Part shown: positions 26,987 through 59,112 of the stretch, in pieces
Layout: each line of letters opens with the position of its first letter
Numbering within the stretch: the stretch's first letter is position 1
Assembly: GCA_965232345.1 (NCBI GenBank)
Contig: OZ246969.1
Span: forward strand, 2,369,613-2,433,612
Length of the DNA: 64,000 nucleotides
Direction of reading: 5' to 3'
Origin: Arenicellales bacterium
GTDB lineage: Bacteria > Pseudomonadota > Gammaproteobacteria > Arenicellales > JAJDZL01
Program-made: the position numbers and the translations under genes
Notes under the pieces: model-generated
Databases searched by the model: none
Seen by the model: only the letters and a program-made list of their open reading frames with translations
What the model was told of the DNA's origin: nothing

Positions 26987-28528
26987 TCAGGCGCGCGGCC
27001 CGCGAAACGGCCCCCTCAGCACATCCGAAACGCCGCCGGCAGCGCGGTCCAGCCGCCCGCTCAGCTGCCCCCAGCCGCCCGCCAGAGCCTGCGCCGAGCG
27101 CGAGCTGAGCGCGCCGATCAGCAGGAACCAGGCCAGCGGCAGCGTCAGGTACGCGGTCAGCGTGATCAGCCCCAGCACCACATCGGCCACTGTGCCGCTG
27201 CCGCCGAACTCGAACGCCAGCGCATCTGGATACATCGTCTTCAGCAGCTTCTCATCAAGAAACTCAGCCACCGCCCACAGCGCGGTCACGAACCGCAGCG
27301 CGAACAGCATCACCACCGCCCGCACGATGATGCCCGGCTGCAGCGCCGCATACGGCACCACCAGCGGCAGCATCACATACATCAGCATCAGCATCAGCGC
27401 CTGCAGCATCGGCAGCCCGACCACCACCAGCTCCATGACAATGTGCAGCAGCGCCGCCAGCGCCAGCGCGCCGATGCCGGCGGCGATCTGCTGCAGCCCG
27501 TCCGCCGACAGCCACCCCAGCGAGTTGAAGAAGATGCCGGACTCGCGGTCGGCCCGCTCGACCATGATGCGCGGCACCTGATTCAGCATGCGCCGCAGCA
27601 CCCGGTCCTCAAAGCGGCGCACCAGGTCCGGATATCTGCGCCGCTTCTCGGCATCCATGCTGTCCACCACCCGCTCGATATCGCGTTTGAACGACGGCGA
27701 CTGCTGATGCAGATTGCCCAGCAGCCGCCCGCGCAGCCCCCGCGCGGCATCGTCCCACCAGACATCGCAGCGCGGCCGTCCGGCGCCCGGACCCGCGCCG
27801 AGCCAGGCCGCGACCGGCATCCGCGCCTGATAGCCGGTTCCGCAGCGCTGGACATCCGGGCAGGCCCGGTAATAGCCCTCGGTGCGAACAAAAAGATGCG
27901 AGCCGAGCCAGTCCACCGCCTCGAAATCATCCGCCGCCTGCGGCGCGTCCGGCGCGCGCTGGTACTTGGCCAGCGACGGCTCGTAGCAGTCGCGCCGAAA
28001 CTGCCCGAGCTCGGCGATCAGGCTCTCATCGTCGATCGAAAGCTGCGCGACTCTGAGCAGACTCGCCCGCAGCACGGCCGGACTGCCCAGCCCGTCGATG
28101 ACCGACACCACCCGGTCCGTGACCAGCGACGAAGCCTGGTGCACCAGCCACCATAGAATCGGCACCCGAAATCCCTCAACTGAATAGGCACCGTCCAGAT
28201 ACGGCAGATCGGGCGCCTGCGCATGAGTCGGCGTGTCCGTGTAAGGCGCGTCGAACCGGATCTCGTCGCGGCTGACCGGCACCGCCGGCAGAAAGGCGAA
28301 CACGATCACCGCCGCGGCGCTCAGCGCGTCAAGCTCCATGCGCCTCAGCGACACAGCCGCCGCCTCGCGCATCGACTGGCTCCGCATGGGCTCCGACCAG
28401 TTGCGCCAGATCAGCACCGCCAGGGGCAGCAGCACGAGACCGCTGCCGGCCAGCAGCTGCGCGATGCCGTTGGCGATGTGCCAGCCTGTCAGCGTGGTGG
28501 CCAGCTCGAAGTAGGAGTGAACGTTCAT
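26987..28528 (-). CDS. TraG N-terminal-domain-like conjugal transfer membrane protein (terminal gene of the ICE T4SS cluster)
   Basis: About 513 aa from MNVHSYFELATTLTGW. Multiple TM segments at both ends with a large central periplasmic-looking region. Its position after the PFL_4711-like gene matches the family gene order. High GC. Confidence 0.65.
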   Translation of the reverse strand: MNVHSYFELATTLTGWHIANGIAQLLAGSGLVLLPLAVLIWRNWSEPMRSQSMREAAAVSLRRMELDALSAAAVIVFAFLPAVPVSRDEIRFDAPYTDTPTHAQAPDLPYLDGAYSVEGFRVPILWWLVHQASSLVTDRVVSVIDGLGSPAVLRASLLRVAQLSIDDESLIAELGQFRRDCYEPSLAKYQRAPDAPQAADDFEAVDWLGSHLFVRTEGYYRACPDVQRCGTGYQARMPVAAWLGAGPGAGRPRCDVWWDDAARGLRGRLLGNLHQQSPSFKRDIERVVDSMDAEKRRRYPDLVRRFEDRVLRRMLNQVPRIMVERADRESGIFFNSLGWLSADGLQQIAAGIGALALAALLHIVMELVVVGLPMLQALMLMLMYVMLPLVVPYAALQPGIIVRAVVMLFALRFVTALWAVAEFLDEKLLKTMYPDALAFEFGGSGTVADVVLGLITLTAYLTLPLAWFLLIGALSSRSAQALAGGWGQLSGRLDRAAGGVSDVLRGPFRGPRA

Positions 28529-28536
28529 GGCCCGCG

Positions 28537-29868
28537 CTACCGCAGCAGCCACTCCGGCGCCGTGCGGCGCGGCGCCTGCGGTGTCGAGAGCGCCCGGTGC
28601 GCGGCCAGCACCTCAAGCACCGTGCCCGACACCGCCTGCCGCCGGGCCTGCAGCTCCCAGCCGGCCCGCTCGATCTCCCGCTCCAGCACACTCACCTGCG
28701 CGGCCACCGTGTCGGCGACACCGCCGCCGCGCTGGATGTGCGGCTCCATCAGTCCGCTCAGCAGGAGCCGGCGCGCCAGGAACGCCTGCTCCAGCGTCTC
28801 GGCCAGCGCCGCCTCATTGGCCAGCCGCCGGATCAGAAAATCTCGGTCCGGCAGATCGCGCAGCGCCTCGATGACCGGCGCGGCCAGCGCCACATCAGCG
28901 CCCGCGAAGGCCAGCTCTCCGGCCCCGCCCTCCGGGTCCGCTGAATACACGCGCTCGCGCAGCGTCTCAGCCAGGCTGTCTGTCAGCCGGTCAACCTGGG
29001 GCAGAAGCCCCTCGCCGACCACCGTCTCCACCGCCTCTCCAGCCTGGATGCGAAAATCGCCCAGCACTCTGACCACCCAGTGTCCGGCCGCTTCCGAGGT
29101 TGGCCAGGCGCGTCGCAGCGGCGAGTCCGGCCGCGCCTCATCCGAGCGCGGCGCGGCCTCCCGGCAGTCGCTCGGCGCATCCAGCAGCAGACACCAGCCG
29201 GCCTGCGCCGCATCCCGCAGCAGCCAGATCGGCGGCGCGCCCCGGCAGCCGGCTCTGCGGTTGCCAATCCAGGTCACGCAGCCGTCGCTCGCATCCGCGC
29301 TGCGCTTCGCGCTGGCCGCGCTCTCGCCGCGCCCGGCCTCCGTCTCCCAGACCTCGGTGCGCGCCGCCTCCAGCAGGTCCTGACGCGGGGTGGCCGGCCG
29401 CGCGGCGGCGTCGAAATCCCGGCGGCACTCCTCAACCGACCAGTTCCAGCGCTCCTCGGCGCGCACCAGATAATGCTGCAGCAGCTGGCAGGCGCCGGGC
29501 TTGGCGCGGCACAGGACAGACCCCGGCAATGCGCTGGTGACCGCCTGCGGCACCGCGCTCAGCGCGGTGAGCGAATCCTCAAGGCGCGCCGAAAGAATGT
29601 CCAGCACATCCACTGTGTGGCTGAAGCCGGCGCAGGCCGAGCCCAGCGGCGCCGCCGGCCCCTTGAGCGGCGCGGCGCCCCGGCGCTCCGATGCCGCAAT
29701 GTCGGTGGCGCGCCCGCCGCCCAGCAGATAGTAGAGCGCCAGATCATGCACCCGGTCGTCCGCGCCGCGGGCGCAGTCGGCCAGCCCAAGCCCAAGCGAG
29801 CCTGCGAATGCCGCCGCCACCGCCCGCCAGAGCGCGGTCCGCAGCAGGTATCTGAGAATTCGGTTCAT
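28537..29868 (-). CDS. integrating conjugative element protein, PFL_4711 (TIGR03755)-like
   Basis: From the ATG at 29868, preceded by GGGGGAGA: signal-peptide-like MNRILRYLLRTALWRAVAAAFAGSLGLGLA, then LALYYLLGGG. Size is about 443 aa and the position is between the TraU-like and TraG-like genes. Family call from memory. Confidence 0.55.
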   Translation of the reverse strand: MNRILRYLLRTALWRAVAAAFAGSLGLGLADCARGADDRVHDLALYYLLGGGRATDIAASERRGAAPLKGPAAPLGSACAGFSHTVDVLDILSARLEDSLTALSAVPQAVTSALPGSVLCRAKPGACQLLQHYLVRAEERWNWSVEECRRDFDAAARPATPRQDLLEAARTEVWETEAGRGESAASAKRSADASDGCVTWIGNRRAGCRGAPPIWLLRDAAQAGWCLLLDAPSDCREAAPRSDEARPDSPLRRAWPTSEAAGHWVVRVLGDFRIQAGEAVETVVGEGLLPQVDRLTDSLAETLRERVYSADPEGGAGELAFAGADVALAAPVIEALRDLPDRDFLIRRLANEAALAETLEQAFLARRLLLSGLMEPHIQRGGGVADTVAAQVSVLEREIERAGWELQARRQAVSGTVLEVLAAHRALSTPQAPRRTAPEWLLR

Positions 29869-30003
29869 TGTCTCCCCCTGTGCTGTCATTTGCGGACAGA
29901 CTAACACGCGCTGACCATGCTTCAGCGCGAATATCCATCCCCGCGCGCTGACATTTTTTTCAAGCTGTCCGTCACACGCGAAACCGGCGTCTTCGAAACT
30001 ATA

Positions 30004-31194
30004 ATGAACGCCTCTTCCCACACCTGCGTCCAGCCGCCGACTGCCGTGCCCGATGTATCCGCCACCGTCGATTTTGCCGCCGCGCTGATCCGCCGCGCGT
30101 CGGTCACCCCCTGCGACGGCGGCTGTCAGCCGCTGATCGCGCAGCGCCTTGCGCGGCTTGGATTCACCATCGAGTCATTCGACTGCGGCGAGGTCTCGAA
30201 TCTGTACGCGCGGCGCGGCGCCGGCAGCCCGCACCTGACGTTCATCGGACATACCGATGTGGTGCCGACCGGCGAGCCGGAAGGATGGCGCCACCCGCCG
30301 TTTGCCGCCGCGCTGGCGGACGGCTTTCTGCACGGCCGCGGCGCGGCGGACATGAAGGGCTCCATCGCCGCCATGGTCACCGCCTGCGAGCGCGCGCTGG
30401 CGCCCGGCGGCCGCGGCTTTCCAGGCAGCCTGTCATTTCTGCTGACCAGCGACGAGGAGGGGCCGGCGGTCGATGGCGTGCGCCACGCGCTGGCGCGGCT
30501 CGATGCGCGCGGCGAGCGGCTGCAGTACTGCCTGGTCGGCGAGCCGACCTCGGAGACCGCGCTCGGCGACACCATCAAGATCGGCCGCCGAGGCTCATTG
30601 ACCGGCGTCATCACGGTGCGCGGACGGCAGGGGCACGTGGCCTACCCGCACCTGGCCGACAATCCGGTGCACCGCAGCGGCGCGCTGATCTCAGCGCTGG
30701 CGGACCTGGCCTGGAACGACGGGGACGAGGTGTTCCCCGACACAACACTGCAGATCTCCAATGTGAATGCCGGTGTCGGCGCCGAGAATGTGATTCCGGG
30801 CGAGCTTGAACTCAATTTCAACATCCGCTTCTCGCCGGCGCAGACCGCCGCCGGACTGAGACGCGAGATCGAGCGGCTGTGCCGCAGCCTGCCGCTTGAC
30901 TGCGCGATCGAATGGCGTCCGCCTGCAGATCCCTATCGCAGCCGCGGCGCCGAGCTGGCGGCGCTGGTCTCGGCCGCCGTCGCGGATGTGACCGGCAGCG
31001 AGCCGTACCGCTCGACCGGCGGCGGCACCTCGGACGGCCGCTTCGCAGCCGCCACCGGCGCGCAAGTGGTCGAGTTCGGGCCGCTCAACGCAACCATTCA
31101 CCAAGTCAATGAGTGTGTCGGCATCCGCGATCTGGATCGGCTGTCCGAAATCTACCAGCGATTGATCGAGCGTCTGGCCGACGCATCTGCATGA
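30004..31194 (+). CDS. dapE: succinyl-diaminopimelate desuccinylase
   Basis: FIGHTDVVPTGEPEGWRHPPF, GRGAADMKGSIAAM, TSDEEGPAVDG and GGGTSDGRF. M20 peptidase of DapE type. 75/100 GC at 30301-30400. Start taken at 30004 (MNASSH). Confidence 0.85.
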   Translation: MNASSHTCVQPPTAVPDVSATVDFAAALIRRASVTPCDGGCQPLIAQRLARLGFTIESFDCGEVSNLYARRGAGSPHLTFIGHTDVVPTGEPEGWRHPPFAAALADGFLHGRGAADMKGSIAAMVTACERALAPGGRGFPGSLSFLLTSDEEGPAVDGVRHALARLDARGERLQYCLVGEPTSETALGDTIKIGRRGSLTGVITVRGRQGHVAYPHLADNPVHRSGALISALADLAWNDGDEVFPDTTLQISNVNAGVGAENVIPGELELNFNIRFSPAQTAAGLRREIERLCRSLPLDCAIEWRPPADPYRSRGAELAALVSAAVADVTGSEPYRSTGGGTSDGRFAAATGAQVVEFGPLNATIHQVNECVGIRDLDRLSEIYQRLIERLADASA

Positions 31195-32426
31195 GCCGAG
31201 CGGCTGATCACGCGCAGCTCATCGCATTGGGCCGTCAGTCCTATGCGCCGAACTACCGGCCGCGCGAGGTGGTGTTCGAGACCGCCCGCGGCTGCGAGCT
31301 GACCGACACCGCGGGCAAGACCTATCTTGACTTCGGCTCCGGCATCGGCGTCAACTGCCTGGGACATCAGCATCCGGCGATCGTTGATGCGATGAACCGC
31401 CAGGCTGGCCGCCTGTGGCACTCAAGCAATGTCTACTTCAACCGGCCGGCGATCCGCCTCGCGGCGCAGCTCATCGAGAGAACCTTCGCCGAGCGCGTGT
31501 TTTTCTGCAATTCCGGGGCGGAGGCCAACGAAGCCGCGATCAAGGTGGCGCGGCGCTACGGCTATGGTCAGGCCGGCGCCCGCAAACATGTCATCATCAC
31601 GCTGCAGGGATCCTTTCACGGACGCACTCTGGCGGCTGTGACCGCAACTGCCCAGCCGAAATATCACACCGGCTTCGGCCCGCTTCCAGCCGGCTTTCGC
31701 TACTGCGGTTTCAACGACATCGATCATCTTCGGTCACTTGCCGCCGACGATGTCTGTGCCATAATGCTGGAGCCGGTTCAGGGCGAGGGCGGCATCCGAC
31801 CGGTTTCTGACGAGTTTCTGAAAGCCGCCGCGCAGCTGTGCCGCACCCATGACGCGCTTCTCATCGCCGACGAGATCCAGTGCGGCATGGGACGGACCGG
31901 CAGACTGTTCGCTTATGAATGGGTGGCTGGCATCGCACCCGATATCGTTACCGCGGCCAAAGCGCTCGGCGCCGGTCTGCCGATTGGCGCCATGCTGCTC
32001 GGGCCGAAGCCGGCCGACACTCTGCGGCCCGGCAGCCACGGCTCCACTTTTGGTGGCAATCCGATTGCCTGCGAGGTCGCAGGCGCAGTGCTCGAGACAC
32101 TTCACGCGGACGGCATGCTGAGCGGCATCGTGCGGAAAGGTCAGGCTCTTCGGAACGGACTTGCCGCCATCAGCGAGCGCACCGGCGCCTTCGGTGAGAT
32201 CCGCAGCCGGGGCATGATGATCGGCGCCGAGCTCAGCGGCGGCTGCTCGGGGAAAGCGGGTCAGATACTCAACGACTGTCTCGCTGCCGGACTGCTAGTG
32301 CTGCAGGCCGGAGACAACGTAATCCGACTGCTGCCGGCCTATACCATCAGCGATGCTGAAATCCGGACCGGGCTCGCGCGTCTCGAGCGGGCGCTGGTGC
32401 GCGGCCTCGCGGACCGGCCGCAGTGA
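31191..32426 (+). CDS. argD: class III aminotransferase, ArgD type (acetylornithine / N-succinyl-diaminopimelate aminotransferase)
   Basis: DFGSGIGVNCLGHQHPAIVDAM, FFCNSGAEANEAAIKVAR, DEIQCGMGRTGRLFAYEW, TAAKALGAGLPIGA (PLP Lys). The start ATG at 31191 overlaps the dapE stop (ATGA). Confidence 0.85.
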   Translation: MSRAADHAQLIALGRQSYAPNYRPREVVFETARGCELTDTAGKTYLDFGSGIGVNCLGHQHPAIVDAMNRQAGRLWHSSNVYFNRPAIRLAAQLIERTFAERVFFCNSGAEANEAAIKVARRYGYGQAGARKHVIITLQGSFHGRTLAAVTATAQPKYHTGFGPLPAGFRYCGFNDIDHLRSLAADDVCAIMLEPVQGEGGIRPVSDEFLKAAAQLCRTHDALLIADEIQCGMGRTGRLFAYEWVAGIAPDIVTAAKALGAGLPIGAMLLGPKPADTLRPGSHGSTFGGNPIACEVAGAVLETLHADGMLSGIVRKGQALRNGLAAISERTGAFGEIRSRGMMIGAELSGGCSGKAGQILNDCLAAGLLVLQAGDNVIRLLPAYTISDAEIRTGLARLERALVRGLADRPQ

Positions 32427-32429
32427 GTG

Positions 32430-33536
32430 TCAGACGGTGACTCCGCCCAGCGGGTCCAGCGCCCGGCAGTCCTCGCTCTGCCAGCCGACTGAGACGGCCT
32501 GGCCGTATTCCAGATTGACATGACCGCTGGCGTTCGGAATCTTGATGATGAAGTCATCGTGCCCGCACAGGCTCACGCGGGTGCGCACATGATCTCCGAG
32601 GTAAATCACTTCCTCCACCTTGGCCTGCACTGAGTTGTCACAACTGCCGGATTCGGGGTTGACTGTGACGCGTTCCGGACGGAGTGACAGGGTGGTCGCC
32701 GAGCCGACGCCATCAATGTTGACCGCCTTGGCGGTGACGACCTCGCTGTTTCGCATCTCAACCGCGCATGCGCCATTGGAGACCTGGGCAACCTTGCCCT
32801 GTAGCACATTGTTCTCGCCGATGAACTGTGCAACGAATGAATTTTCCGGCTCCTCGTACAGAACGCCGGGTGCGGCCAGCTGCTGAATGATGCCGTCGTT
32901 GAACACCGCGATTCTATTGGACATGGTCAGCGCCTCACCCTGATCATGAGTCACATAGATGACCGTCACATTCAGGTTCTCGTGAATGTGCTTGATTTCG
33001 TACTGCATCTGCTCGCGCAGCTGCTTGTCCAGAGCGCCGAGCGGCTCGTCCATCAGAACCAGCTTGGGCCGAAACACCAAGGCTCTGGCCACCGCAACCC
33101 GCTGCTGCTGCCCGCCGGACAGCTGACCGGGCAGGCGGCCGCCGAATTCGTGCAGCTGCACCATGCCGAGCGCTTGCGTCACGCGTTCGTCTATCTCGGC
33201 GGCCGGCAGTTTCCGCACCCGCAGCGGAAATGCCAGATTCTCACTCACCGTCATGTGCGGGAACAGCGCGTAGTTCTGGAACACCATGCCAATCTCGCGC
33301 TTGTGCGGAGAGACATTGTTGATCGGCACGCCATCAAGAAAAATCTCGCCATGGGTCGCGGTCTCGAACCCCGCCAGCATCATCAGACAGGTGGTTTTTC
33401 CTGAGCCTGAGGGACCGAGCAGGGTAACGAACTCGCCCTGCTCCACTGCCAGATTCAGGTTCTTGACGACCAGTGTCTCGCCGTCGTAACTTTTCTGCAC
33501 ATCTGAGAATTGCACATATGAATTTATTGGATCCAT
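32430..33536 (-). CDS. ABC transporter ATP-binding subunit (PotA/UgpC-like, with a TOBE-like C-terminus); no permease or binding protein adjacent
   Basis: 368 aa. Walker A GPSGSGKTT, signature LSGGQQQRVAVARAL, Walker B LVLMDEPLGALD. 64/100 GC at 33001-33100. Confidence 0.85.
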   Translation of the reverse strand: MDPINSYVQFSDVQKSYDGETLVVKNLNLAVEQGEFVTLLGPSGSGKTTCLMMLAGFETATHGEIFLDGVPINNVSPHKREIGMVFQNYALFPHMTVSENLAFPLRVRKLPAAEIDERVTQALGMVQLHEFGGRLPGQLSGGQQQRVAVARALVFRPKLVLMDEPLGALDKQLREQMQYEIKHIHENLNVTVIYVTHDQGEALTMSNRIAVFNDGIIQQLAAPGVLYEEPENSFVAQFIGENNVLQGKVAQVSNGACAVEMRNSEVVTAKAVNIDGVGSATTLSLRPERVTVNPESGSCDNSVQAKVEEVIYLGDHVRTRVSLCGHDDFIIKIPNASGHVNLEYGQAVSVGWQSEDCRALDPLGGVTV

Positions 33537-33607: not shown

Positions 33608-34210
33608 TTACAGGAAAAATCTTTGCGCGACATCATGACCGCCTTCCCAAAGCATGGTCACTGCAACGAAAAAAATGATCAGCACACCCACATACTCAAT
33701 CCATTTGTACTTGTTGAGCAGGTTGGCGATCATTGTCGCGCCGACCACCATCAACACCACCGACAGCATCAGACCGAAGACCAGTATCACAAGGTGTTCC
33801 CGAGCGATGCTGGCCACCGCCAGGACGTTGTCGAGCGACATGGAGATATCCGCAACCAGAATTCGGAACAGAGCCTGGCGGAACGTGACGGACCCATCTG
33901 CAGAACTCGTTTCAGATTGAGCGTCAACCGAATGACGGCGATCACTTCGCATGTCTTTCCACAGCCGCCAGCAAACCCAGAGCAGCAGCAGTCCGCCAAT
34001 CAGCAGCAGTCCCGGAATCTTGAGCAGCTGCACCGTCAGCACTGCAAAAACAATTCTTGCAATGACCGCCAGCATGATGCCGATAGTGATGACCTTCCTG
34101 CGCTGTTCGCGAGGCAGACCGGCGGCCACCAGACCGATCGCGATCGCATTGTCGCCTGCAAATAGCAGATCGACCAGAATGACTTGCATCAGTGCGCTGA
34201 GTTCGCTCAT
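33608..34210 (-). CDS. TerC-family (YjbE-like) integral membrane protein
   Basis: 200 aa. LLFAGDNAIAIGL and ADISMSLDNVLAVA duplicated motifs typical of small TerC-family proteins. Multi-TM. Confidence 0.78.
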   Translation of the reverse strand: MSELSALMQVILVDLLFAGDNAIAIGLVAAGLPREQRRKVITIGIMLAVIARIVFAVLTVQLLKIPGLLLIGGLLLLWVCWRLWKDMRSDRRHSVDAQSETSSADGSVTFRQALFRILVADISMSLDNVLAVASIAREHLVILVFGLMLSVVLMVVGATMIANLLNKYKWIEYVGVLIIFFVAVTMLWEGGHDVAQRFFL

Positions 34211-50231: not shown

Positions 50232-50743
50232 TGCGGATTCACCTTGTCTGTCTGCTGTGGTGTGGAGCGTCCCGATAGTCCGATCGAGATTTCGTGTCCG
50301 GAAACCAGCAGGCGCATGCCGCGCGGATGCACTTCCGTCACCAGCGCCAGGCGAATGGAATCACCGTTCCGCAGCCGATATTCCCTGCCATCGAGGCGCG
50401 CATAAGCTGTCAGGCCGTCGGCGTTTCCGACGATCGCATAAACCTCCAGATTCTGGTCGAACCAGTTGACTCGATCCATGCCGGGATTGGATTCATGCGC
50501 TTCATCCTGAGCGGAAACCTGCGGCGGCGGACTGCTGTGGCTTGAGTGAATCTCAGAAATCTTGGCCACCAGCTGCTGATATTCGAGCACGCGTCGCAGA
50601 ATGTCCTGCTGATTCTGCAGACAGTCCAGCAGCGCGACCGTGCCCGAGCTCGAACTGCAGACGGCAGGAATTTCCGGCATCTGCTGCGCGGGCGCCCAGT
50701 GCGGCAGGACAAGCCACAGGCTCGCGATCGACCTAATCAGCAT
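50228..50743 (-). CDS. PilP-like pilus biogenesis protein
   Basis: Signal-like MLIRSIASLWLVLPHWAPAQQ from the internal Met at 50743. Small, sits between the pilO-like and pilQ-like genes, and its C-terminus is beta-rich. Confidence 0.5.
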   Translation of the reverse strand: MLIRSIASLWLVLPHWAPAQQMPEIPAVCSSSSGTVALLDCLQNQQDILRRVLEYQQLVAKISEIHSSHSSPPPQVSAQDEAHESNPGMDRVNWFDQNLEVYAIVGNADGLTAYARLDGREYRLRNGDSIRLALVTEVHPRGMRLLVSGHEISIGLSGRSTPQQTDKVNPQ

Positions 50744-51992: not shown

Positions 51993-53505
51993 TCGCCGGA
52001 CGAATGATGTGCGGTGTGATCAGAAGCACCAGGCTGGTGCGGGTGGTCTTGATTTTCGAATCCTTGCTGAATAGTGCGTTGCTCTTGGAATCGTCGGTCC
52101 GAAACGTGTCGAGTCCGGCAACGAACAGCAGTTCTCCTGAATTCAGTATGACCGGCAGGAGTGCGGAGCGAGACTCGAGGTTTGGCAGCTGGATGACCGG
52201 GTCCTCCGGTCCGGCATCCTGCGGAAAGCGGCTGATCTCCTTGATGCGGGTTGTTCTTACCGTCAAATTGAGCATGATTCGGTTGCTGTCGGCCAGGATT
52301 CTCGGCAGCATGTTGATTGCGATGCCATCTTGGATCTTGCCCGGCAGAAGACGCACCGCGGTCGTCCCTTCGGTGTTGACCACTTCGCGCCGCTCAAGGT
52401 AGGAGGTTTCGTCACCGAAGAAAATCGGCACTGGAAAACCGTTCAGGCCCCGAATCACTGTCGAGGTCAGTTTCGCGACTCGATTGTCTCCGGCTGACTT
52501 TCGCAGTATCACCTCGAAGTCGCTTGCATCAACGGCTGGAGCGCTGGAATGAGTCAATTGGATGCCAACAAGTCCGCCGGCATCGTCGCTGTCAAAGTTG
52601 ATTTCGGCCGCGCTTTTTCCGAATGCCTCCTTCATGAACCCTCTGAAGTTGAAGCCCGCCGCCGCATTCTCACTTTGATGAATCTCGTAAAGGTCGACAT
52701 TCACCAGAACTTGCGTGGTCAGCTCTTGATTCTTGATCGCGATCCAGTCGGCGATCCGCTGCAGAGCGGCCGGGGTGTCGACCACAGTCACTTCACCTGA
52801 CAGGCGGTTGATATTGAATCTGCCGGCTTGCGTGAGCAGACTGCTCAATGACGTTTCGATCTGCTCCCAGAAGTTCGAGGTGTCCATTGAAACGACAACC
52901 CTGTCCTGCGCCTGCAGATCCGATCCGCTGGAGCCGCTCTGAACTGATCCTGAAAGACCGACTGAAGCCTGCCACTTTGTGTCGACGGTTGGAACCAACA
53001 AGGTCCACAGGCCAAGTTCGGTATGAAAGATCTCGATTCGGTTATGACGGACGCGCCAGCTGTAACCTAAGCGGCCGGTTATGTGATTGAGCGCTTCCCT
53101 GGCAGACCCTTGCCAGTTGATCGCGGGAAGTTCGTCTGTTTCAATGTCGGCCGCGATGGTGATGGGCAAGCCGACTTGAGCGGCGATCTGGCGGGTCAGT
53201 TCATACAGCGTGACAGATTCGACGAATGTCAATTCGATTTTCTGATTGAGTTCTGCCGGTTCCGGATCGGGCGAGTCGATCACTCGAATCGGAGACTGCG
53301 GGCCTATCCACGCCTGCGGGTACTGCTGAACGAAATCTGAATCAGGCGTGCCTGCCTTGACCTGAGACGTTCGAACCAGCTCATTCTCGACTTCGTTGAC
53401 GAACTCTTCGGTCGAGGAACTGATTTCAGTCGGCAGTCGGCAGGCGGAAAGCGACACCGCTATCGCGAAAGCTGCGGACAGCTTGATGGAGCGCTCGATA
53501 TTCAT
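51934..53505 (-). CDS. pilN: type IVb pilus secretin lipoprotein, PilN-like
   Basis: 523 aa. Lipobox AIAVSLSACRLP. C-terminal secretin domain (…IAINMLPRILADSNRIMLNLTVRTTRI…LLFVAGLDTFRTDD…LVLLITPHII). Confidence 0.78.
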   Translation of the reverse strand: MNIERSIKLSAAFAIAVSLSACRLPTEISSSTEEFVNEVENELVRTSQVKAGTPDSDFVQQYPQAWIGPQSPIRVIDSPDPEPAELNQKIELTFVESVTLYELTRQIAAQVGLPITIAADIETDELPAINWQGSAREALNHITGRLGYSWRVRHNRIEIFHTELGLWTLLVPTVDTKWQASVGLSGSVQSGSSGSDLQAQDRVVVSMDTSNFWEQIETSLSSLLTQAGRFNINRLSGEVTVVDTPAALQRIADWIAIKNQELTTQVLVNVDLYEIHQSENAAAGFNFRGFMKEAFGKSAAEINFDSDDAGGLVGIQLTHSSAPAVDASDFEVILRKSAGDNRVAKLTSTVIRGLNGFPVPIFFGDETSYLERREVVNTEGTTAVRLLPGKIQDGIAINMLPRILADSNRIMLNLTVRTTRIKEISRFPQDAGPEDPVIQLPNLESRSALLPVILNSGELLFVAGLDTFRTDDSKSNALFSKDSKIKTTRTSLVLLITPHIIRPAIDFSGRRIWRRQGDRSSIL

Positions 53506-54278
53506 CTTGAGCTGGAGCTTGTGTATGCGTCTGGTTCAATCACAAGAACTGAATTGCCGCTGTAGAACTTGCCGATCAGGGGGACCGGAGCGTTTCGATA
53601 GTGCGCGAGCAGCGAACTGACCGCGTCAACCAGTGTGCCCGAGAAGGCTGAAGACTGCGTGATCGCGTAATCGTGGCGAGTGCGCCATTCCAGCGACCAG
53701 TCAGCCAGCTGTGTCCAGCTTTCCAGATTCTCCCGCAGCGTCATGGAACTTTGCAGCTGCCAGGTCCCCGGACTTGTCAATGCGGAGTCATTGGCAGGGT
53801 CGGCCGCATTGGTTCGAACCTGCGAATTTGAAGCCGCCGCCGGTGACTCAATGACCTCGATCGAATCCGCACCGGCGCGCTGAAACCACAGTATCCGCTG
53901 GCCGACATCCTCGTGCAGCTCCCAAGGCTGTCCGACTATGGTCTTCACCGCGGTTCGCACATCCAGCGGTCCGATCGACCGATGAGTTTCCGGCAGCGGC
54001 ATTGCGAGGGTTTGCTGAATGTCCGCGGTTGCGACATGCCTGAATCCGGATCGGTAGAGAATGTAGTCAATCGCCGTCCCGACTGTTTCGACATACGGTG
54101 GAAACCGCGTTTCGATCACAGCAGACAGCAAATCGACCTGGCTGGATTCGGCCGCCAGCGAGTGCAATGAGTAGCGATTCATGCGCTCCATCTCAACGGC
54201 CGAGGTCGCTTCGCAAGACATTGTCAGCGCGAGCGATCCCAATGTTCGGACCGCAAGATTTGTCCTGAAAATATTCAT
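53502..54278 (-). CDS. pilL: PilL-like conjugative transfer region protein (TIGR03748-like, with a TcpQ-like C-terminus)
   Basis: 258 aa. NRYSLHSLAAESSQVDLLSAVIETRFPPYVETVGTAIDYILYRSGF, and C-terminal TLRENLESWTQLADWSLEW. First gene of the pil cluster. Confidence 0.62.
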   Translation of the reverse strand: MNIFRTNLAVRTLGSLALTMSCEATSAVEMERMNRYSLHSLAAESSQVDLLSAVIETRFPPYVETVGTAIDYILYRSGFRHVATADIQQTLAMPLPETHRSIGPLDVRTAVKTIVGQPWELHEDVGQRILWFQRAGADSIEVIESPAAASNSQVRTNAADPANDSALTSPGTWQLQSSMTLRENLESWTQLADWSLEWRTRHDYAITQSSAFSGTLVDAVSSLLAHYRNAPVPLIGKFYSGNSVLVIEPDAYTSSSSR

Positions 54279-54390: not shown

Positions 54391-55302
54391 TCATGCCGGC
54401 GCGGGAATTTTGCTCATGAGATAATTTCGCGCCTTCCAGGCGAGGGCGCTGGATGTGAAAATCGCCTTGGGATCGTTTTCCAGAATCTTTATCCAGTCCA
54501 TGACGTAGGAATCGTGACGCAGCTCGCCGAAAATGTGATAGTCCGCACACAAGAATGCGGACCCAATCTCCGCGATCAGCTCCTCGTACGCATATCCAAC
54601 CGACTTGAATGGAAAGGGATCGACGATGCCGGCCCGATTCAACCTGGACTTATGGCCGGTCCAGTGGGTCAGCTCATGCATGAGGGTGCTGTAGTAGCCG
54701 GCGGTTGACTCGAATGCGGCTTTCGGCGGCATGCAGATGACATCTGATTCGGGAAAATAGGTGGCGACAGTCCCCGCATGCCGCACTTTCGCGCCGCACA
54801 GCTTGATCAGGTCATCGGCGCTGTGATGGGATTCCCAGTTCTGTTCCAGGGTGTGCGTCGGATATCTGCCTTTGGCGACTTTCTCAGGCAGGCCGACGCA
54901 CTGCTCCACATTGAACAATGTGAATGCGCGGGCGATTTTGTAGGGCTGCGCTTTCGGCTGCTCTTCATTTTCGTCATCTTCCAGTTTGCTGGCGACTTCG
55001 ATTTTCTTGAACAGCACAGCGACTGAGCCTTTTTCCCCTTTGCGAATCCGGCCGCCAAGCTTGGAAGCCTGGCGAAAGGACAGCCAGCGGTCGTACTCGT
55101 AGCCGCGGGCGATGGCAGATGCCCAGAGAATGGTGACATTGATTCCTGTGTATCGACGTTCAGTTACCGCATTGACTGGGTACCCCGGCACGGGACAGCA
55201 TTCTGACCAGGGCTTCCGCCATGGCGGTGCGCCGTTTTTCAGCGCGTCGATAAATACTTTTGTAACTTTTGTGAAAACACTTTGAGATTTTTCGTTGGTC
55301 AT
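54391..55302 (-). CDS. ArdC-like antirestriction protein (N-terminal ssDNA-binding domain plus zincin metalloprotease domain)
   Basis: 303 aa. N-terminus ...GAPPWRKPW...NAVTERRYTGINVTILW and C-terminal HELTHWTGH (HExxH). Confidence 0.8.
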   Translation of the reverse strand: MTNEKSQSVFTKVTKVFIDALKNGAPPWRKPWSECCPVPGYPVNAVTERRYTGINVTILWASAIARGYEYDRWLSFRQASKLGGRIRKGEKGSVAVLFKKIEVASKLEDDENEEQPKAQPYKIARAFTLFNVEQCVGLPEKVAKGRYPTHTLEQNWESHHSADDLIKLCGAKVRHAGTVATYFPESDVICMPPKAAFESTAGYYSTLMHELTHWTGHKSRLNRAGIVDPFPFKSVGYAYEELIAEIGSAFLCADYHIFGELRHDSYVMDWIKILENDPKAIFTSSALAWKARNYLMSKIPAPA

Positions 55303-55427
55303 CGTTCCAGAATGAAAATGAAATTGGAACGAAAGTTAACTGATTCTGCAGTGAGTTCAAACAAAAAACATGGAATTCAACCTGACAGGTTTTTTCGCGC
55401 GGCATTTGATCAGCGACATTGCGTCGG

Positions 55428-56774
55428 CTAATTTTGCTTCGAGTCGTCTGCCGCGGATGCGTCGGAGTCGGACCCCGAATCCAAAGCTTGTTCCAGAATG
55501 CGCTGGCGGTATCGTCGCTCAGTTTCGCTGAAATTCTTTTGAGTGTCATTTGCCGCCGCACGCTGCTCGAAAATTCTCTCGGCGTTTTCAATCTGAAACT
55601 GGCCGTCCTCCCTGAGACCGATTCCATGCTGTGTGAGCCGCTTGCAGTAGGTGGACATCAGTGAGACTGGATTCCAGACCGGCGCGCATCGGTTCGCCAA
55701 TCCCGCCTTGATCCGGCCATCCAATTCATCGAGCAGAAGCTGATGCCATGAGTCCCATGGTTTCGGAGGTTCTGGCAGACTCGCGGGCAGCCGTTTCAGG
55801 TTAAGAACGATCAGATGTTTCTGATTGTCGCTCACGGACTCTGGGAACACCAGGTTCGGCTCAAGTTCCAGCAGTTCTTTTTCAGTTGCATCGTTGTAGT
55901 AATTGCTTTTTTTCACTTCCTTACTACCAGTAGGTACTACAGAGTCTGATCGAACTGATGATTTGGACTGGTCTTTTGCTAAGTTGCTGATATCACCGTA
56001 GTTCATCTCGTGAACTGCGGTGATATTCTTGTCGTTGTGATGAGCGCGATGGACTGAGTCGCCGGTTTGATCTCCGATGTCCTCCAATTCGGGGTAAGTG
56101 CCGAAGTAGCTGATTTCAGCATCGCCTTCCAGAGCCATCCAGGCATCTGCCCGCCGTTCGAAGGGGTGTTTGTATTCCATCACATTCCGCCCCGAGCCGA
56201 TCTCATGCCGCAGTGAACTCAGGATCAGCTCAGCAATCTTGCGAACATCGGAATTTCGATGCTTCCTGCTGTCGTTCACAAATCCCATGTAATTGGAATC
56301 AAGTTCGAACGTATCGGTCAATGCCAAGGGTTCACCGTGAACCATGTAAATATTGCCATCTCTTGTGAACTGACCCGACTCATTGCGTTCCTGATCCCGG
56401 CAGAGCAGGGTGATCCAGCGGGTCAGGCGCAGTTTTGCTATGGAGCTTGAAACGGTGCCGCGCGAGATGTTGAGCATGGATTGAATCTCGTCGTAGCTGG
56501 GAAATGAGGCGAGCGACATGTCGGGTGTGCATCGAGACCGGATTGCAAGCCAAACCAGCTTGTCGTACGGATTGAGCACCGGGTCGAAGATCAGCAGCCG
56601 GGGATGTGAGTCGTACCAGTTGTCCGTGAAAATCATTCCGTGCGAGACGCTCTCGCCTCTTCGGAAATTCTTTGCCGCAGACAGGATTCTCGACAGGTTT
56701 CGCTTTATGGATTTGGGTTCAGAATAATCAGCCATGAATCTCGCACCGGGTGAATGGAAATTGGCAGCTCTCAC
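55428..56774 (-). CDS. STY4528-family-like pathogenicity-island protein with wHTH
   Basis: 448 aa. HGMIFTDNWYDSHPRLLIFDPVLNPYDKLVWLAIR...SFPSYDEIQSMLNISRGTVSSSIAKLRLTRWITLL resembles the SPI-7/PAPI-1 STY4528 family N-terminus (from memory). Confidence 0.58.
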   Translation of the reverse strand: MRAANFHSPGARFMADYSEPKSIKRNLSRILSAAKNFRRGESVSHGMIFTDNWYDSHPRLLIFDPVLNPYDKLVWLAIRSRCTPDMSLASFPSYDEIQSMLNISRGTVSSSIAKLRLTRWITLLCRDQERNESGQFTRDGNIYMVHGEPLALTDTFELDSNYMGFVNDSRKHRNSDVRKIAELILSSLRHEIGSGRNVMEYKHPFERRADAWMALEGDAEISYFGTYPELEDIGDQTGDSVHRAHHNDKNITAVHEMNYGDISNLAKDQSKSSVRSDSVVPTGSKEVKKSNYYNDATEKELLELEPNLVFPESVSDNQKHLIVLNLKRLPASLPEPPKPWDSWHQLLLDELDGRIKAGLANRCAPVWNPVSLMSTYCKRLTQHGIGLREDGQFQIENAERIFEQRAAANDTQKNFSETERRYRQRILEQALDSGSDSDASAADDSKQN

Positions 56775-56838
56775 CTCTTACCGCCGCTGGAACTGCGTTG
56801 CAGCCACCGGCGGTGCGAGATTCATTCGACTCCGCGTT

Positions 56839-57420
56839 CTATGCGCTTCGCAGCTGTTTGAGCGAGCCGTCATTCTCCCACTCCTGAATCAGACTCCAGA
56901 TGACCCGGAGCGACACCTCCCGCTTCAGTGACTTGAAGATATCCAAAAACTCTCCAGGCCCGAAGCTGGTGGACTCCTTCAGCGACTTCTCCACCGCTTT
57001 CCAAACCGACTTCTCAACTTCCATTGACGGCTGTATCGGCCGTCCCGGGGCCAGCTCCGACAATCCGAACTGACATCTTCTGAGCTTGAATTGAGTCCGG
57101 GTCATGCCGGTGAGCGAGCGCATCAGCTGCGGCGGAGCGTCGCAGCAGATGAGTTCGTTGATCATGCTCTCCCTGGTGTTCTCCCGAATGACATAATCAA
57201 TCATTCGCCAGAAGATCTTTCGATTCAGATTGATCGACAGAAAATGCGATTTTGTCGATGCCAGGCGCAGTGCATCCGTAGTTGACAGCGTGCTGAGCGC
57301 CCGCACTTCGCTGGGCCCGAACCCCATTTCATACAGAGCGTTGTAGTCACCCTCTTCCTCGCAGCGGTGAAAGAAAAGCACGATTGATCTGATTAGTTCA
57401 GTTTCTTTGCTGATAGACAT
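56839..57420 (-). CDS. DUF2857-like ICE protein
   Basis: 193 aa. Sits directly downstream of the ParB-like gene, as in SPI-7/PAPI-1-type islands. Call made by position and size only. Confidence 0.42.
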   Translation of the reverse strand: MSISKETELIRSIVLFFHRCEEEGDYNALYEMGFGPSEVRALSTLSTTDALRLASTKSHFLSINLNRKIFWRMIDYVIRENTRESMINELICCDAPPQLMRSLTGMTRTQFKLRRCQFGLSELAPGRPIQPSMEVEKSVWKAVEKSLKESTSFGPGEFLDIFKSLKREVSLRVIWSLIQEWENDGSLKQLRSA

Positions 57421-59112
57421 TTATTTACCTCCAGTGTCAGACAAACGAAACAAATGCAGATTGTGCTCGTTTGCCAAATGATGCAGATTTCGATAGGACT
57501 CTGTCAGAGTTTGAATACTGGCCCAGCTCTCGTCATCCAGTTGGCGCAGACAGAAGCCAATCAGGCCGATATGGGGAAATGTACACTTCATTTTTCCCTT
57601 TGCGTGAGAAATTAGTGATTTCGGATCGCCCGATTTAATGAAGTGAAGCAGATCCGTCTTTCCGATCAGTTTTGCGGTGGCGGGACGGGCGCATTCAGTC
57701 GCCCATTGCAGATCGCAGAACTCCACCAGCAGCCACCACAGCGCTTCTCGAGTTGCCGCGGCAGTCGGATTGAGCAGCTCGACCGGGGGCGGGTAGTCAC
57801 AAACGATATAGCCAATCCCCCAATCCCCTGTATTCACAATGATGCGTTTCTTGTTTGACGGATTGACCAGAAAGCTGTGCTGCTTTCCGATTTGTGAGGC
57901 CGCGGCATACGCGTTGCCCCTGAGCGTCGACAGCTTCAGTTCAAGTTCCGAGCGCTGCGGCGGCTTGGCAGATCTGCGCGGTTTCTGGCTTTGAGAATCG
58001 GAATTTTCTGAGTCGCTCTGTTTGGGCGGGTTGACGCCCAGAGTGATGGATTTGAACTCAGGCAGTTTGCCGTAGGGACGCTTCAGCTTGCCTTCAGCTT
58101 TTGCGCTTTTCAGCAGATCACTGGAGTTGATCGGCAGTTTGGGGTGGGCAGCTTCGTGTTTTTGAGCTTGCTCAAACTGTTCCAGTTCCGGGAGAATCTG
58201 TTCGAATGACTCGTGAAGCGGTGTCGATGAGAAACTCAGGTATCCATCAATGCGCAATGAGACATCCTGTATGGAGGTTGACACTTCCTTTGCCAGATTG
58301 GCTTCCAGTGAACGGCGAAAAAACTCCTTGTCCCATTCCGCCTCCGGGTAGCCAATCAGCGCCTGTTGAAATAATTTTCTTGACTGTGCGGCTGTCTTGT
58401 CAAACTCTTTGCAGACATCGCGGAAGGCATTCTGCAGTTTTCGCACACTTAGAATTGACCTGCGTCCCATTGATTCACAAGTGGTCGACGATAAGTTGGG
58501 CTCAATCATCTCAACCGCGTAGAGCATGATCGAAAGAGAGCTCAACGTAACGCTGTATCCTCTTTCGATAAGCTTCTGATGAGAGTGGCGAACTGACGAT
58601 GTCTCTTCATCTTCAGATTCGGTCTGCAGATGATCGATGGCGGCCTTGATGCCGACTGCCTTGTCAATGAAGCACAACGATTTCCGCAGCTCGTTTTCCT
58701 GCAGATGACCAATAATGGCATCAGATTCATAGCCGGACCAGGGCATGAAGGAGCACTCGACAAAACGGAACTTGTAGTCACCTGTTTCCTCAAACAGTTC
58801 TTTGATCGCTTGCAGTCTGGTGTTGCCGCCTTTGTACACAATGAAATTCTGATGGCCCGGACGACGGGTGATGACGATCGGTTGGATCAGTCCGTTCCGG
58901 GCGATGGATTGCTTGATCTTCTGGTAGTTGGGATTCGCGCGTCGCCGCGGGTTGTTCTCATAGGGTTGGATGCTTGAGATTGGCAGGGTGATCAGCGCTC
59001 GATCAGTCAGTGATTCAAAAATGTCCACATCACTTGTTTGACCAGATTTTTCATTGGTAGACTGTGCATTTTCGCCGTGTTCGGGCAATGGGCGTTTCTT
59101 CATGGTTGGCAC
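57421..59112 (-). CDS. ParB-like nuclease-domain protein (ICE PFGI-1-class ParB-like)
   Basis: 563 aa. N-terminal ParB/Srx box: PISSIQPYENNPRRRANPNYQKIKQSIARNGLIQPIVITRRPG...YKGGNTRLQA. Confidence 0.8.
   Translation of the reverse strand: MPTMKKRPLPEHGENAQSTNEKSGQTSDVDIFESLTDRALITLPISSIQPYENNPRRRANPNYQKIKQSIARNGLIQPIVITRRPGHQNFIVYKGGNTRLQAIKELFEETGDYKFRFVECSFMPWSGYESDAIIGHLQENELRKSLCFIDKAVGIKAAIDHLQTESEDEETSSVRHSHQKLIERGYSVTLSSLSIMLYAVEMIEPNLSSTTCESMGRRSILSVRKLQNAFRDVCKEFDKTAAQSRKLFQQALIGYPEAEWDKEFFRRSLEANLAKEVSTSIQDVSLRIDGYLSFSSTPLHESFEQILPELEQFEQAQKHEAAHPKLPINSSDLLKSAKAEGKLKRPYGKLPEFKSITLGVNPPKQSDSENSDSQSQKPRRSAKPPQRSELELKLSTLRGNAYAAASQIGKQHSFLVNPSNKKRIIVNTGDWGIGYIVCDYPPPVELLNPTAAATREALWWLLVEFCDLQWATECARPATAKLIGKTDLLHFIKSGDPKSLISHAKGKMKCTFPHIGLIGFCLRQLDDESWASIQTLTESYRNLHHLANEHNLHLFRLSDTGGK

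Follow-up and report, generated by a model that had tools for sequence, protein, structure and literature searches.

A 35-kb MPF_G island in marine Arenicellales that retains T4SS and type IVb pilus genes without a coupling protein or relaxase

In PAPI-1 and pKLC102 of P. aeruginosa and in SPI-7 of S. Typhi, an MPF_G T4SS occurs together with a type IVb pilus cluster (pilL-pilV), a protein of the STY4528 family, and a ParB of the PFGI-1 class. These elements reach at least 100 kb and carry TraD, TraI, Soj/ParA, DnaB, and TopB; PAPI-1 is self-transmissible and has a XerC-like integrase with tRNA-Lys as its target. The model of the MPF_G family, which also contains ICEHin1056, is ICEclc (Pseudomonas knackmussii B13 / P. 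putida), whose transfer depends on each of iceD4 (TraD), TIGR03747, and traI (PMC10018362). Other T4SS function without VirD4, namely Bartonella Trw, used in adhesion; Bordetella Ptl, which exports a periplasmic substrate; Brucella VirB; and H. pylori ComB, which serves DNA uptake (PMC12857230). Additionally, T4SS of the MOBless kind are common, and exaptation has been proposed for many of them (PMC3548315).

We compared with these systems an island found in the window, that is, the whole 64-kb stretch of Arenicellales DNA that was analyzed. The island shares the combination of MPF_G and type IVb pilus with PAPI-1, pKLC102, and SPI-7, but it measures 35 kb and lacks TraD, TraI, Soj/ParA, DnaB, and TopB. 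As in ICEclc, the order of TIGR03759, RAQPRD, TIGR03745, 03750, 03746, 03749, 03752, 03751, VirB4, 03757, TraU, 03755, and TraG_N is kept, and both elements have a ParB/DUF2857-type module and integrate at att repeats. However, the IceD4 (TraD), Orf68241 (TIGR03747), VirB1 transglycosylase, DUF2859 protein, and TraI of ICEclc are all absent from the island; ICEclc has no pil cluster and carries its cargo outside the MPF operon, whereas the island has a pil cluster and genes inside the operon. Within the collections searched, the nearest annotated MPF_G cluster lies in the 113-156 kb region of the Methylophaga thalassica plasmid NZ_CP143310.1 and has the same backbone order. There, TIGR03759 is followed by a hypothetical gene, SLT, an ICE protein, TraD, TIGR03747, and RAQPRD, and the five-gene block between the two outer genes is missing in the island. 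The plasmid also encodes TraI, 1.6 kb after TraG, and ParA, neither of which the island has, whereas its stretch contains no pil cluster and no embedded dapE/argD. The TraC of the best annotated relative is only 37% identical to that of the island.

The island is bounded by an exact 22-bp direct repeat (AAAAAAATCTGAGTCCTAATCA), with attL at 24409..24430 and attR at 59710..59731 (both unstranded), and spans 35,301 bp with one att copy counted or 35,323 bp with both. The attL core reads TGATTAGGACTCAG on the minus strand and has the form (C)TGA-N7-TCAG; homologous cores flank the island on both sides in three further genomes. Within each of the four genomes, the attL and attR cores (CTGA-N7-TCAG) are identical, whereas the 7-bp spacer depends on the lineage (TTAGGAC; TTAAGAC in two genomes; TTAACCC), which points to continued excision competence. 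Two short-read contigs stop at the same base, 8 nt past the att core, and one of the two measures 35,145 bp, the expected att-to-att span. The core is identical at 14 of 15 positions to the anticodon arm of tRNA-Lys(CUU), and the island lies beside a tRNA-Lys gene in one relative. GC3 changes steeply at attL.

As in MPF_G ICEs, a site-specific integrase accompanies the flanking att repeats. IntA, a short tyrosine recombinase (24871..25797, plus strand; Pfam Phage_integrase, E 2.4e-19), is 57-74% identical to its counterparts in loci L018, L019, L025, and L028; its homologous portion of about 200 aa begins near 25171, and the additional N-terminal stretch of the ORF is likely to be spurious. 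The second tyrosine recombinase, IntB (25801..26763, minus strand), is XerC/D-like, is called with about 304-308 aa in relatives, and is convergent with IntA. In one genome, a second IntB-like integrase, a tandem-integrase remnant, lies immediately outside att. The first-pass annotation had missed the second recombinase, the covarying att core, and the dapE/argD/potA-like/terC block described below.

The first-pass annotation had described full MPF and pilus machinery with about 15 T4SS families, and the profile searches agree, resulting in 14-15 families of the MPF_G (ICEclc/PAPI-1) type in addition to the pilus cluster. All channel genes are on the minus strand. The TraG_N-type MPF inner-membrane protein (26987..28552; Pfam PF07916, 109 bits), equivalent to ICEclc orf53587, is intact wherever the loci of relatives extend that far, and its gene lies 223 nt from the integrase, as previously noted. 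It is followed by a TIGR03755-family MPF protein (28537..30021; E 9.5e-56, 189 bits, under the 270-bit cutoff), TIGR03756 (TraU-like; 34413-35465), and TIGR03757 (DUF1525; 35459-35881). TraC, the VirB4-type ATPase (TIGR03744; 35878..38721), scored 864 bits against a cutoff of 521, and its Walker A (GPTGSGKT) and Walker B (VVIDEA) motifs are both retained in 17/17 relatives. The MPF core at 38718..42768 comprises a TIGR03751 lipoprotein, TIGR03752, TIGR03749, TIGR03746, TIGR03750, DUF2976 (TIGR03745-like), and DUF3262 (42547-42768), beyond which lie RAQPRD (42771-43226) and TIGR03759 (43227-44009). TIGR03746, 03749, 03751, 03752, 03756, and RAQPRD were above their cutoffs; TIGR03750, 03755, 03757, 03759, DUF2976, and DUF3262 were under theirs, yet with E-values from 6e-4 to 1e-56. 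These MPF_G-specific accessory families stand in the canonical order, and the order that the first-pass annotation had given proved correct against both Methylophaga thalassica NZ_CP143310.1 and the ICEclc table (PMC10018362).

The same annotation had seen no T4CP, relaxase, ParA, or DnaB between the repeats and had noticed that two neighbors abut without a gap; both observations stood, and the HMM search it proposed for T4CP and relaxase matched none of the element's ORFs. No NCBIfam or Pfam match to T4CP (TraD), TIGR03747, TraI, ParA, or DnaB was obtained among all island and flank ORFs of the window, and tblastn with TraD, TIGR03747, SLT, TraI, and ParA of a canonical relative gave nothing in the same 64 kb. 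The best match of these queries (E 0.67) fell on the Walker A motif of TraC, whereas other genes of that relative, used as positive controls, gave E 1e-15 to 1e-26. A VirB1-like transglycosylase is absent from the island, the MOBH relaxase TraI (TIGR03760 / TraI_2) had no HMM or tblastn match in the window and 23 related loci, and no HUH, HD, or Rep_trans profile matched an island ORF. RAQPRD and TIGR03759 meet at 43226/43227, the site where canonical elements have five genes including TraD; TraD and TIGR03747 would not fit there, and the largest unassigned gap of the island is 440 bp. The content is the reverse of that of an IME (relaxase and/or oriT, no MPF), with a full MPF and no relaxase, and matches that of VirD4-less T4SS loci, which have neither T4CP nor relaxase. 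No T4CP or relaxase was found within about 10 kb of either island end in any genome examined, nor in the 28 kb of flank in the window; on the host chromosome, the search covered 64 kb of 3,544,205 bp. Judging from the ICEclc deletion data (PMC10018362), self-transfer by conjugation is not expected.

The type IVb pilus cluster (44941..54278, minus strand), assigned by profile searches and intact in relatives, encodes a prepilin peptidase, a PilV-like minor pilin or adhesin, the PilS pilin, the PilR platform, the PilQ ATPase, PilP, PilO, the PilN secretin, and PilL. Ten pilus genes had been counted before; nine are clear, and the tenth (44009..44722, minus strand) is a conserved unknown. Its bitopic product of 237 aa contains a TM helix, a long coiled-coil segment, and a small domain of beta structure; it weakly matches the Methylophaga gene that lies upstream of TIGR03759, and neither a Walker A motif nor a nuclease domain was found in it. 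Next comes a DNA-side module (54391..59112, minus strand) of ArdC, an STY4528-family HTH protein, DUF2857, and a PFGI-1-class ParB, assigned by profile searches and 41-74% identical in L022 and L023. ArdC, an anti-restriction protein that acts as DNA enters a new cell, is composed here of an ssDNA-binding domain and a metalloprotease. ParB had been named the outermost right-end gene, lacking parA and dnaB; that lack holds, but a 131-aa ORF (59100-59495), not conserved in relatives, lies beyond it. Upstream of parB, the palindrome GTGTTTAC-N3-GTAAACAC (59350..59368, unstranded) is unique in the window, was matched in 0/100 shuffles, and has a positional counterpart in L022 and L029; by sequence it resembles a parS site or an operator.

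Four further genes are embedded in the MPF cluster. The dapE gene (succinyl-diaminopimelate desuccinylase; 29917..31194, plus strand; NF009557, 491 bits against a 284-bit cutoff), with its true start near 30060, occupies the identical position in all relatives whose locus extends that far. It is followed by an argD/dapC-type acetylornithine/succinyl-DAP aminotransferase (31113..32426, plus strand; TIGR00707, 465 bits versus 410), also syntenic in relatives. A PotA-like orphan ABC ATPase with a TOBE domain (32430..33536, minus strand; profile search) shows the strongest conservation of all island genes (77-91% identity, dN/dS 0.03-0.05), and a TerC/YjbE-family membrane protein (33608..34210, minus strand) matched TIGR03717 with 202 bits versus 135. 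No effector-like genes were found in the island.

This stripped-down form occurs in at least 18 marine Arenicellales species, i.e., the present one and 17 relatives with identical gene order and TraC identities of 59-79%. The hosts are uncultured MAGs, and some members of the group are sponge symbionts. All 17 relatives lack the same block, share the four embedded genes terC, potA-like, argD, and dapE, and show the same abutment of RAQPRD and TIGR03759, and where the loci extend that far, each of the ~23 backbone genes is a single intact ORF. The deletion had been read as peculiar to this element; on the sequence comparison, its junctions are instead ancestral to a whole clade. For unsaturated pairs, dN/dS ranges from 0.03 to 0.45 whether the genes belong to the T4SS, the pilus, or the embedded set, and the T4SS and pilus values are comparable to those of dapE and argD when dS is equal. 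Identity between elements follows the Ppx identity of their hosts for TraC (r = 0.97, n = 7) and ParB (r = 0.93, n = 12), both correlations being of identity values, not reconciled trees, from few genomes; the four-genome topology is identical for host and element genes. The sixA-ppx flank is common to four genomes, and the more distant genomes have the island at other loci. Stable vertical inheritance and purifying selection in a host lineage, as would be expected of an exapted T4SS, are both seen.

The first-pass annotation had offered, unranked, a helper-dependent streamlined derivative, a decaying ICE, and a T4SS/pilus set retained for a non-conjugative role. Retention for a non-conjugative role is the best supported of the three, on the grounds of ancient loss, purifying selection, and a divergence that parallels that of the host. 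We consider it somewhat probable that the island is anciently streamlined, chromosomally inherited, and still excisable, with its T4SS and pilus in a T4CP-independent role. An MPF_G ancestor would have lost the block of VirB1, DUF2859, TraD (T4CP), and TIGR03747, and also the MOBH relaxase, ParA, and DnaB, before the host clade radiated. It would have kept the entire MPF channel (TraC/VirB4-powered), the type IVb pilus (PilQ-powered), the ParB-DUF2857-STY4528-ArdC module, and the IntA/IntB module acting on the CTGA-N7-TCAG core, and terC, the potA-like ATPase, argD, and dapE would have been captured into the MPF operon. Inheritance since then would have been with the chromosome, mostly adjoining sixA-ppx, with all genes under purifying selection. 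Channel and pili would still be assembled, and since nothing in the island appears to nick DNA or couple a cytoplasmic substrate, the machine would act without a T4CP, as the known VirD4-less systems do; for this group, with its sponge symbionts, the simplest interpretation would be a role at the cell surface or in cell contact. The island may excise as a circle via IntA/IntB, its own genes alone probably being insufficient for self-transfer.

Counting against this explanation are the retained genes of mobile-DNA type (ArdC, ParB, the STY4528 'replication' protein, two recombinases), the functional-looking att sites, the other loci in distant genomes, and the second IntB-like integrase outside att. 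The same observations, with the covarying cores, the position adjoining tRNA-Lys, the contigs breaking exactly at att, and a GC3 step suggesting a recombination history distinct from that of the chromosome, would fit an island that is still horizontally transmissible, providing channel, pilus, ArdC, and oriT, while T4CP and relaxase are encoded elsewhere by a conserved chromosomal pair ('split' ICE) or a co-resident helper. We find this possible but rather doubtful: neither gene lies near the island ends in the genomes and flank searched, the helper would have to match the island in universality and age, and element and host co-diverge. Moreover, a T4CP-bearing helper normally has its own MPF, and strong selection on the island MPF would then be hard to explain; the MPF_G T4CP clade is also monophyletic and co-inherited with VirB4 (PMC3548315). 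Quite improbable, in our view, is an ICE that transmits itself by a new type of mechanism and whose relaxase and/or coupling function goes unrecognized in a TcpM-like nickase recombinase, STY4528, or the long ParB. Two recombinases are present where one suffices, the DNA-handling genes are conserved, and no fold is assigned to STY4528 (448 aa) or to the C-terminal 270 aa of ParB; however, STY4528, ParB, and DUF2857 also occur in canonical family elements that encode TraI and TraD, no HUH, HD, or Rep_trans domain was matched, and the Walker A motifs of the island are confined to TraC, PilQ, and the ABC ATPase, so that no NTPase could substitute for the T4CP motor. A decaying ICE, with T4SS and pilus as non-functional passengers kept through dapE/argD carriage, agrees with the loss of transfer-essential genes and the embedded housekeeping-type genes, but is highly improbable and was rejected: neither pseudogenes nor patchy MPF loss were found in the 17 species, dN/dS is well below 1, the TraC ATPase motifs are invariant, and at a divergence that saturates dS, neutral decay would have destroyed the ORFs.

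Like the VirD4-less T4SS, the island has a conjugation-derived channel without T4CP and relaxase that is fixed in a host lineage (PMC12857230); those named, which serve in adhesion, two-step secretion, or DNA uptake, are all MPF_T (VirB-like) and lack integrases, att sites, ArdC, ParB, and a type IVb pilus, whereas the island has all five. Like the MOBless T4SS (Guglielmini et al. 2011, 2012), it is chromosomal, has no neighboring relaxase, and suggests exaptation instead of decay; however, MOBless T4SS are usually described without neighboring integrases, whereas the island has two recombinases and att sites and additionally lacks a T4CP. It is improbable that the island is a self-mobile element passing DNA through an MPF_G channel while having neither a VirD4-type coupling protein nor a known relaxase. 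In that case, IntA/IntB or another island protein would process DNA, or the T4SS and type IVb pilus would form a device for DNA exchange or uptake between symbionts; such movement, if true, would account for selection having kept ArdC, ParB, STY4528, the two recombinases, and the matched att spacers for as long as the channel. Under the preferred reading of a T4CP-independent role, the island would be a MOBless T4SS, apparently the first for MPF_G, as no earlier one of this kind was found in the literature, and a long-retained machine as opposed to a decaying mobile element.

An exact 22-bp direct repeat, AAAAAAATCTGAGTCCTAATCA, is present at 24409-24430 (attL) and 59710-59731 (attR) and encloses 35.3 kb. 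The island opens with two tyrosine recombinases, IntA (24871-25797, + strand) and IntB (25801-26763, - strand), followed by the left part of the T4SS, which comprises TraG_N (26987-28552, -) and TIGR03755 (28537-30021, -). Next come the embedded genes dapE and argD (29917-32426, +), a potA-like ABC ATPase (32430-33536, -), and terC/yjbE (33608-34210, -); a housekeeping-type quartet of dapE, argD/dapC, potA-like, and terC/yjbE (29917-34210) lies within the T4SS operon. The main part of the T4SS, on the - strand, has the order TIGR03756/TraU, TIGR03757, TraC/TIGR03744 (35878-38721; 864 bits), TIGR03751, 03752, 03749, 03746, 03750, DUF2976, DUF3262 (42547-42768), RAQPRD (42771-43226), and TIGR03759 (43227-44009). 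The remaining genes, also on the - strand, encode a 237-aa conserved protein of no assigned family (44009-44722), a pilus cluster (prepilin peptidase, PilV-like, PilS, PilR, PilQ, PilP, PilO, PilN, and PilL; 44941-54278), and a DNA-side module (ArdC, STY4528-family, DUF2857, and PFGI-1-class ParB; 54391-59112).

Both flanks are ordinary chromosome: RNase D, fumarase, DUF349, dinB, rhodanese, relA, TANGO2, rlmE, ftsH, glmM, ADH, hydrolase, a Fic gene, ppx, and sixA on the left, and metZ, an unassigned 217-aa ORF (61482-62135), and an IS5-family transposase (62322-63356) on the right. The latter two, located after metZ, are outside the island. The Fic-domain gene (19979-21316), with ppx on one side and the proline-iminopeptidase-family hydrolase on the other, occupies a stretch of low GC content (45-47%), is missing from the syntenic stretch of two related loci (L018 and L028), and looks like a small lineage-specific insertion. 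No Rfam family was found in the window, including a riboswitch upstream of terC. Beyond parB, a 131-aa ORF (59100-59495) showed no conservation, and the ORFs predicted at the corresponding position in the related loci L022, L023, and L029 were unrelated to it and look spurious; the approximately 600 bp from parB to attR are probably non-coding and regulatory. Upstream of parB, the palindrome GTGTTTAC-N3-GTAAACAC (59350-59368) resembles a parS half-site, occurs once in the window, and was matched in 0 of 100 shuffles. It is conserved in relatives (L022 9688-9704, L029 9693-9709, L023 10978-10994, and L019 13525-13541), at differing positions: within parB in L023, and beyond tRNA-Lys, outside the presumed island end, in L019.

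The first-pass annotation had reported that the island lacks a T4CP, a relaxase, ParA, and DnaB, and the profile searches agreed, as no ORF of the island or of the window flanks matched the T4CP, TIGR03747, MOBH relaxase, ParA, or DnaB models. When the island was translated in all six frames, in-frame Walker A motifs were confined to TraC, PilQ, and the ABC ATPase, and the longest stretch without an assigned gene was 440 bp. We also submitted the TraD, TIGR03747, SLT, TraI, and ParA proteins of Methylophaga thalassica to tblastn against the whole window and 23 related loci, which returned nothing; the best match (E 0.05) fell on the Walker A region of TraC, whereas positive controls from the same record (TIGR03759, RAQPRD, TIGR03755, and TraG) gave E values of 1e-15 to 1e-44. 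A T4CP or relaxase hidden among the hypothetical ORFs was rejected, since searches by HMM, by PDB sequence, and by tblastn all turned up nothing; the quality of AlphaFold single-sequence models of 44009-44722 (pLDDT 55) and 55428-56774 (pLDDT 35) did not suffice for a fold search.

The Methylophaga thalassica plasmid NZ_CP143310.1, an annotated relative whose TraC is 37% identical, carries the order TIGR03759, hypothetical, SLT transglycosylase, ICE protein, TraD (685 aa), TIGR03747, and RAQPRD, then TIGR03745, 03750, PFL_4703, 03749, 03752, 03751, TraC, 03757, 03756, (03755), hypothetical, and TraG_N, with TraI 1.6 kb past TraG. The gene table of ICEclc agrees with this order (PMC10018362). 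The gene order given in the first-pass annotation was therefore correct, and because the HMM and tblastn searches were negative with positive controls, the absence is confirmed. Transfer of ICEclc requires each of iceD4 (TraD), orf68241 (TIGR03747), and traI (PMC10018362). By these deletion data, an island without TraD, TIGR03747, and TraI would be unable to transfer itself.

A TraC protein scan with one genome per GTDB species retrieved 17 loci, all from Arenicellales MAGs, with TraC identities of 59-79%. Gene order was identical in 17/17 loci, and TIGR03759 abuts RAQPRD in all of them. The terC, potA-like, argD, and dapE genes lie between TIGR03756 and TIGR03755 in every relative whose locus reaches there, and IntB directly follows TraG wherever the loci extend far enough. 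Each gene is one uninterrupted ORF in every locus covering it, and all 17 TraC proteins retain GPTG[SA]GKT and VVIDEA. Nei-Gojobori dN/dS was 0.03-0.45 for all T4SS, pilus, and embedded genes (unsaturated pairs, dS 0.2-0.6), with similar dS along the island. The right-hand module (ParB, DUF2857, STY4528, ArdC, and PilL-R) was conserved in the three relatives examined. Because order, intact ORFs, and dN/dS are common to the relatives, the T4CP block and the relaxase were lost before the clade radiated, not privately in this island, and the rest has been kept by selection. A decaying ICE, one of the alternatives named in the first-pass annotation, was rejected on the same clade-wide grounds of intact genes, purifying selection, and shared architecture. 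In relatives, the TIGR03756/terC/ABC gene junctions are an insertion hot spot; the lineage-specific inserts found there (L007 14482-16352; L014 14420-16558 and 18141-19787) code for DNA methylase fragments, a DDE transposase, and a DruA-like protein that carries a fused DDE-transposase-associated domain, and were rejected as transfer genes due to this transposase and methylase content.

Ranking homologues of ppx, a flanking host gene, returned the same genomes as the island carriers. Ppx identities of 79, 79, 79, 78, 66, 63, and 61% compare with TraC identities of 78, 77, 74, 78, 64, 63, and 63% (r = 0.97, n = 7), and Ppx against ParB gave r = 0.93 (n = 12), this co-divergence being one of identity values from few genomes. 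Pairwise identities in four genomes gave one topology, ((3458003, 469422), window), 2960598, for host genes (FtsH, GlmM, ADH, Ppx, and SixA) and island genes (IntB, T3755, ArgD, TraG, and ABC). The block sixA-ppx-adh-glmM-ftsH adjoins the island in all four of these, and metZ is on the other side in three. In the distant genome 1794440 the island is beside tRNA-Lys(CTT), and in another, 3147672, it is not at sixA, which there adjoins tpiA-secG-nuo. One relative, L028 (GCA_965243645.1, CBDEVD010000004.1), has a second IntB-like integrase (10001-10915), 53% identical to the window IntB; it lies between the island att and sixA, hence outside the island, and may be what is left of another element formerly inserted in tandem.

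The att sequence, at both ends, is TGATTAGGACTCAGATTTTTTT (22 bp) in the window, ACTGATTAAGACTCAGT (17 bp) in genome 3458003, ACTGATTAAGACTCAG (16 bp) in 469422, and CCTGATTAACCCTCAGT (17 bp) in 2960598. All four fit CTGA-N7-TCAG, with 4-bp inverted arms and a 7-bp spacer; such arms around a spacer are the layout of a tyrosine-recombinase core with its overlap region. The spacer is the same at both ends of each genome and varies among lineages (TTAGGAC, TTAAGAC, TTAAGAC, and TTAACCC), its differences following the host topology. Given vertical inheritance, parallel spacer change at both ends would be expected if selection had continued to act on attL x attR recombination, for which the spacers must be identical; the att sites look functional even now. 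The att core matches, at 14/15 positions, the anticodon stem-loop encoded by the tRNA-Lys(CUU) gene beside the island in 1794440, and in the related locus L019 (12583-12658, 12206-12220) the island is approximately 360 bp from a real tRNA-Lys gene. A tRNA was absent from the window and from attB and attP as reconstructed for four genomes, and tRNA as the integration target was rejected, as the sixA-adjacent sites have none and only the core resembles the tRNA-Lys anticodon arm. The idea that the short recombinase IntA drives a shufflon or an invertible switch was also rejected, as no convincing inverted repeats surround pilV or attL.

Two independent short-read Logan contigs, L020 (SRR33960553) and L021 (SRR33960551), share an identical end point 8 nt past the att core of that genome. 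The length of one, 35,145 bp, is that expected for an att-to-att stretch, and its other end lies 11,370 bp beyond the pilR start, the pilR-to-att distance in the four genomes above being 11.1-11.8 kb. These ends suggest a branching of the assembly graph at each of the two att sites. Such branching would arise from an excised circle or polymorphic occupancy, and hints that natural populations may contain the excised circle or an empty site. A search of JGI metagenomes for the circle junction (parB-att-intA) with a ParB profile recovered only relatives of 32-37% identity and no clade members.

Among the embedded genes, the potA-like ABC ATPase is an orphan, 77-91% identical across species with dN/dS of 0.03-0.05. 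If dapE and argD are the sole copies in these hosts, the island cannot be lost. GC3 falls steeply inward from attL (24871-33536), from 91% in IntA, 86% in IntB, 87% in TraG, and 85% in TIGR03755 to 84% in dapE, 76% in argD, 75% in ABC, and 66% in terC, and then stays at 58-69%, the baseline of island and host; sixA and ppx, just outside attL, have 52-58%. The same genes show a weaker GC3 rise in four relatives (L004, L005, L008, and L016), and GC-biased conversion near the recombination site could be one cause. Overall GC of the left 8 kb (IntA to argD) is 65-74% versus approximately 55% in the rest. A recent graft from a high-GC ICE as the cause of the missing genes was rejected, as the segment is also GC-elevated in those four higher-GC relatives and protein identities run without discontinuity.

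A complete MPF and type IVb pilus under purifying selection across deep host divergence fits the proposal that MOBless T4SSs are exaptations (PMC3548315). VirD4-less systems include Trw, which serves adhesion, Ptl and Brucella VirB, which carry out two-step secretion, and ComB, which takes up DNA (PMC12857230). The island resembles them in having a channel without a T4CP; all four are MPF_T, and the island is MPF_G. In the literature we found neither an MPF_G precedent for a VirD4-less T4SS nor a paper linking Arenicellales with a T4SS.

We favor, with moderate confidence, an island that is chromosomally inherited and still excisable through its att sites, whose channel and pili would need no T4CP for their work, the simplest role being surface contact or adhesion. 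The main rival places the T4CP and relaxase elsewhere; the retained ArdC, ParB, STY4528, double recombinase, and att covariation speak for this arrangement, which we consider rather unlikely. A relaxase or coupling function that has escaped recognition inside the island is very improbable, because TraC, PilQ, and the ABC ATPase are the sole NTPases, and because the candidate proteins are shared with canonical elements of the family, whose members carry TraI and TraD.

To our knowledge, T4SSs without a coupling protein are known only from a few VirB-type (MPF_T) systems, namely Ptl, Brucella VirB, ComB, and Trw, and conjugation is the only function shown for the ICEclc/PAPI-1 class (MPF_G). For annotation, 'ICE' calls from MPF_G TIGRFAMs alone may misjudge mobility. 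The island represents a natural, order-level 'experiment', in which an MPF_G channel and type IVb pilus were selected long after loss of the T4CP, its TIGR03747 partner, and the relaxase, while the element still retains its DNA-handling genes and sites for excision. With it one can ask whether excision outlives transfer, and it provides a concrete system to ask what role a MOBless T4SS plays in free-living or symbiotic marine bacteria. It also bears on how an ICE turns into a permanent organ of the chromosome, with dapE and argD perhaps acting as the lock in this case.
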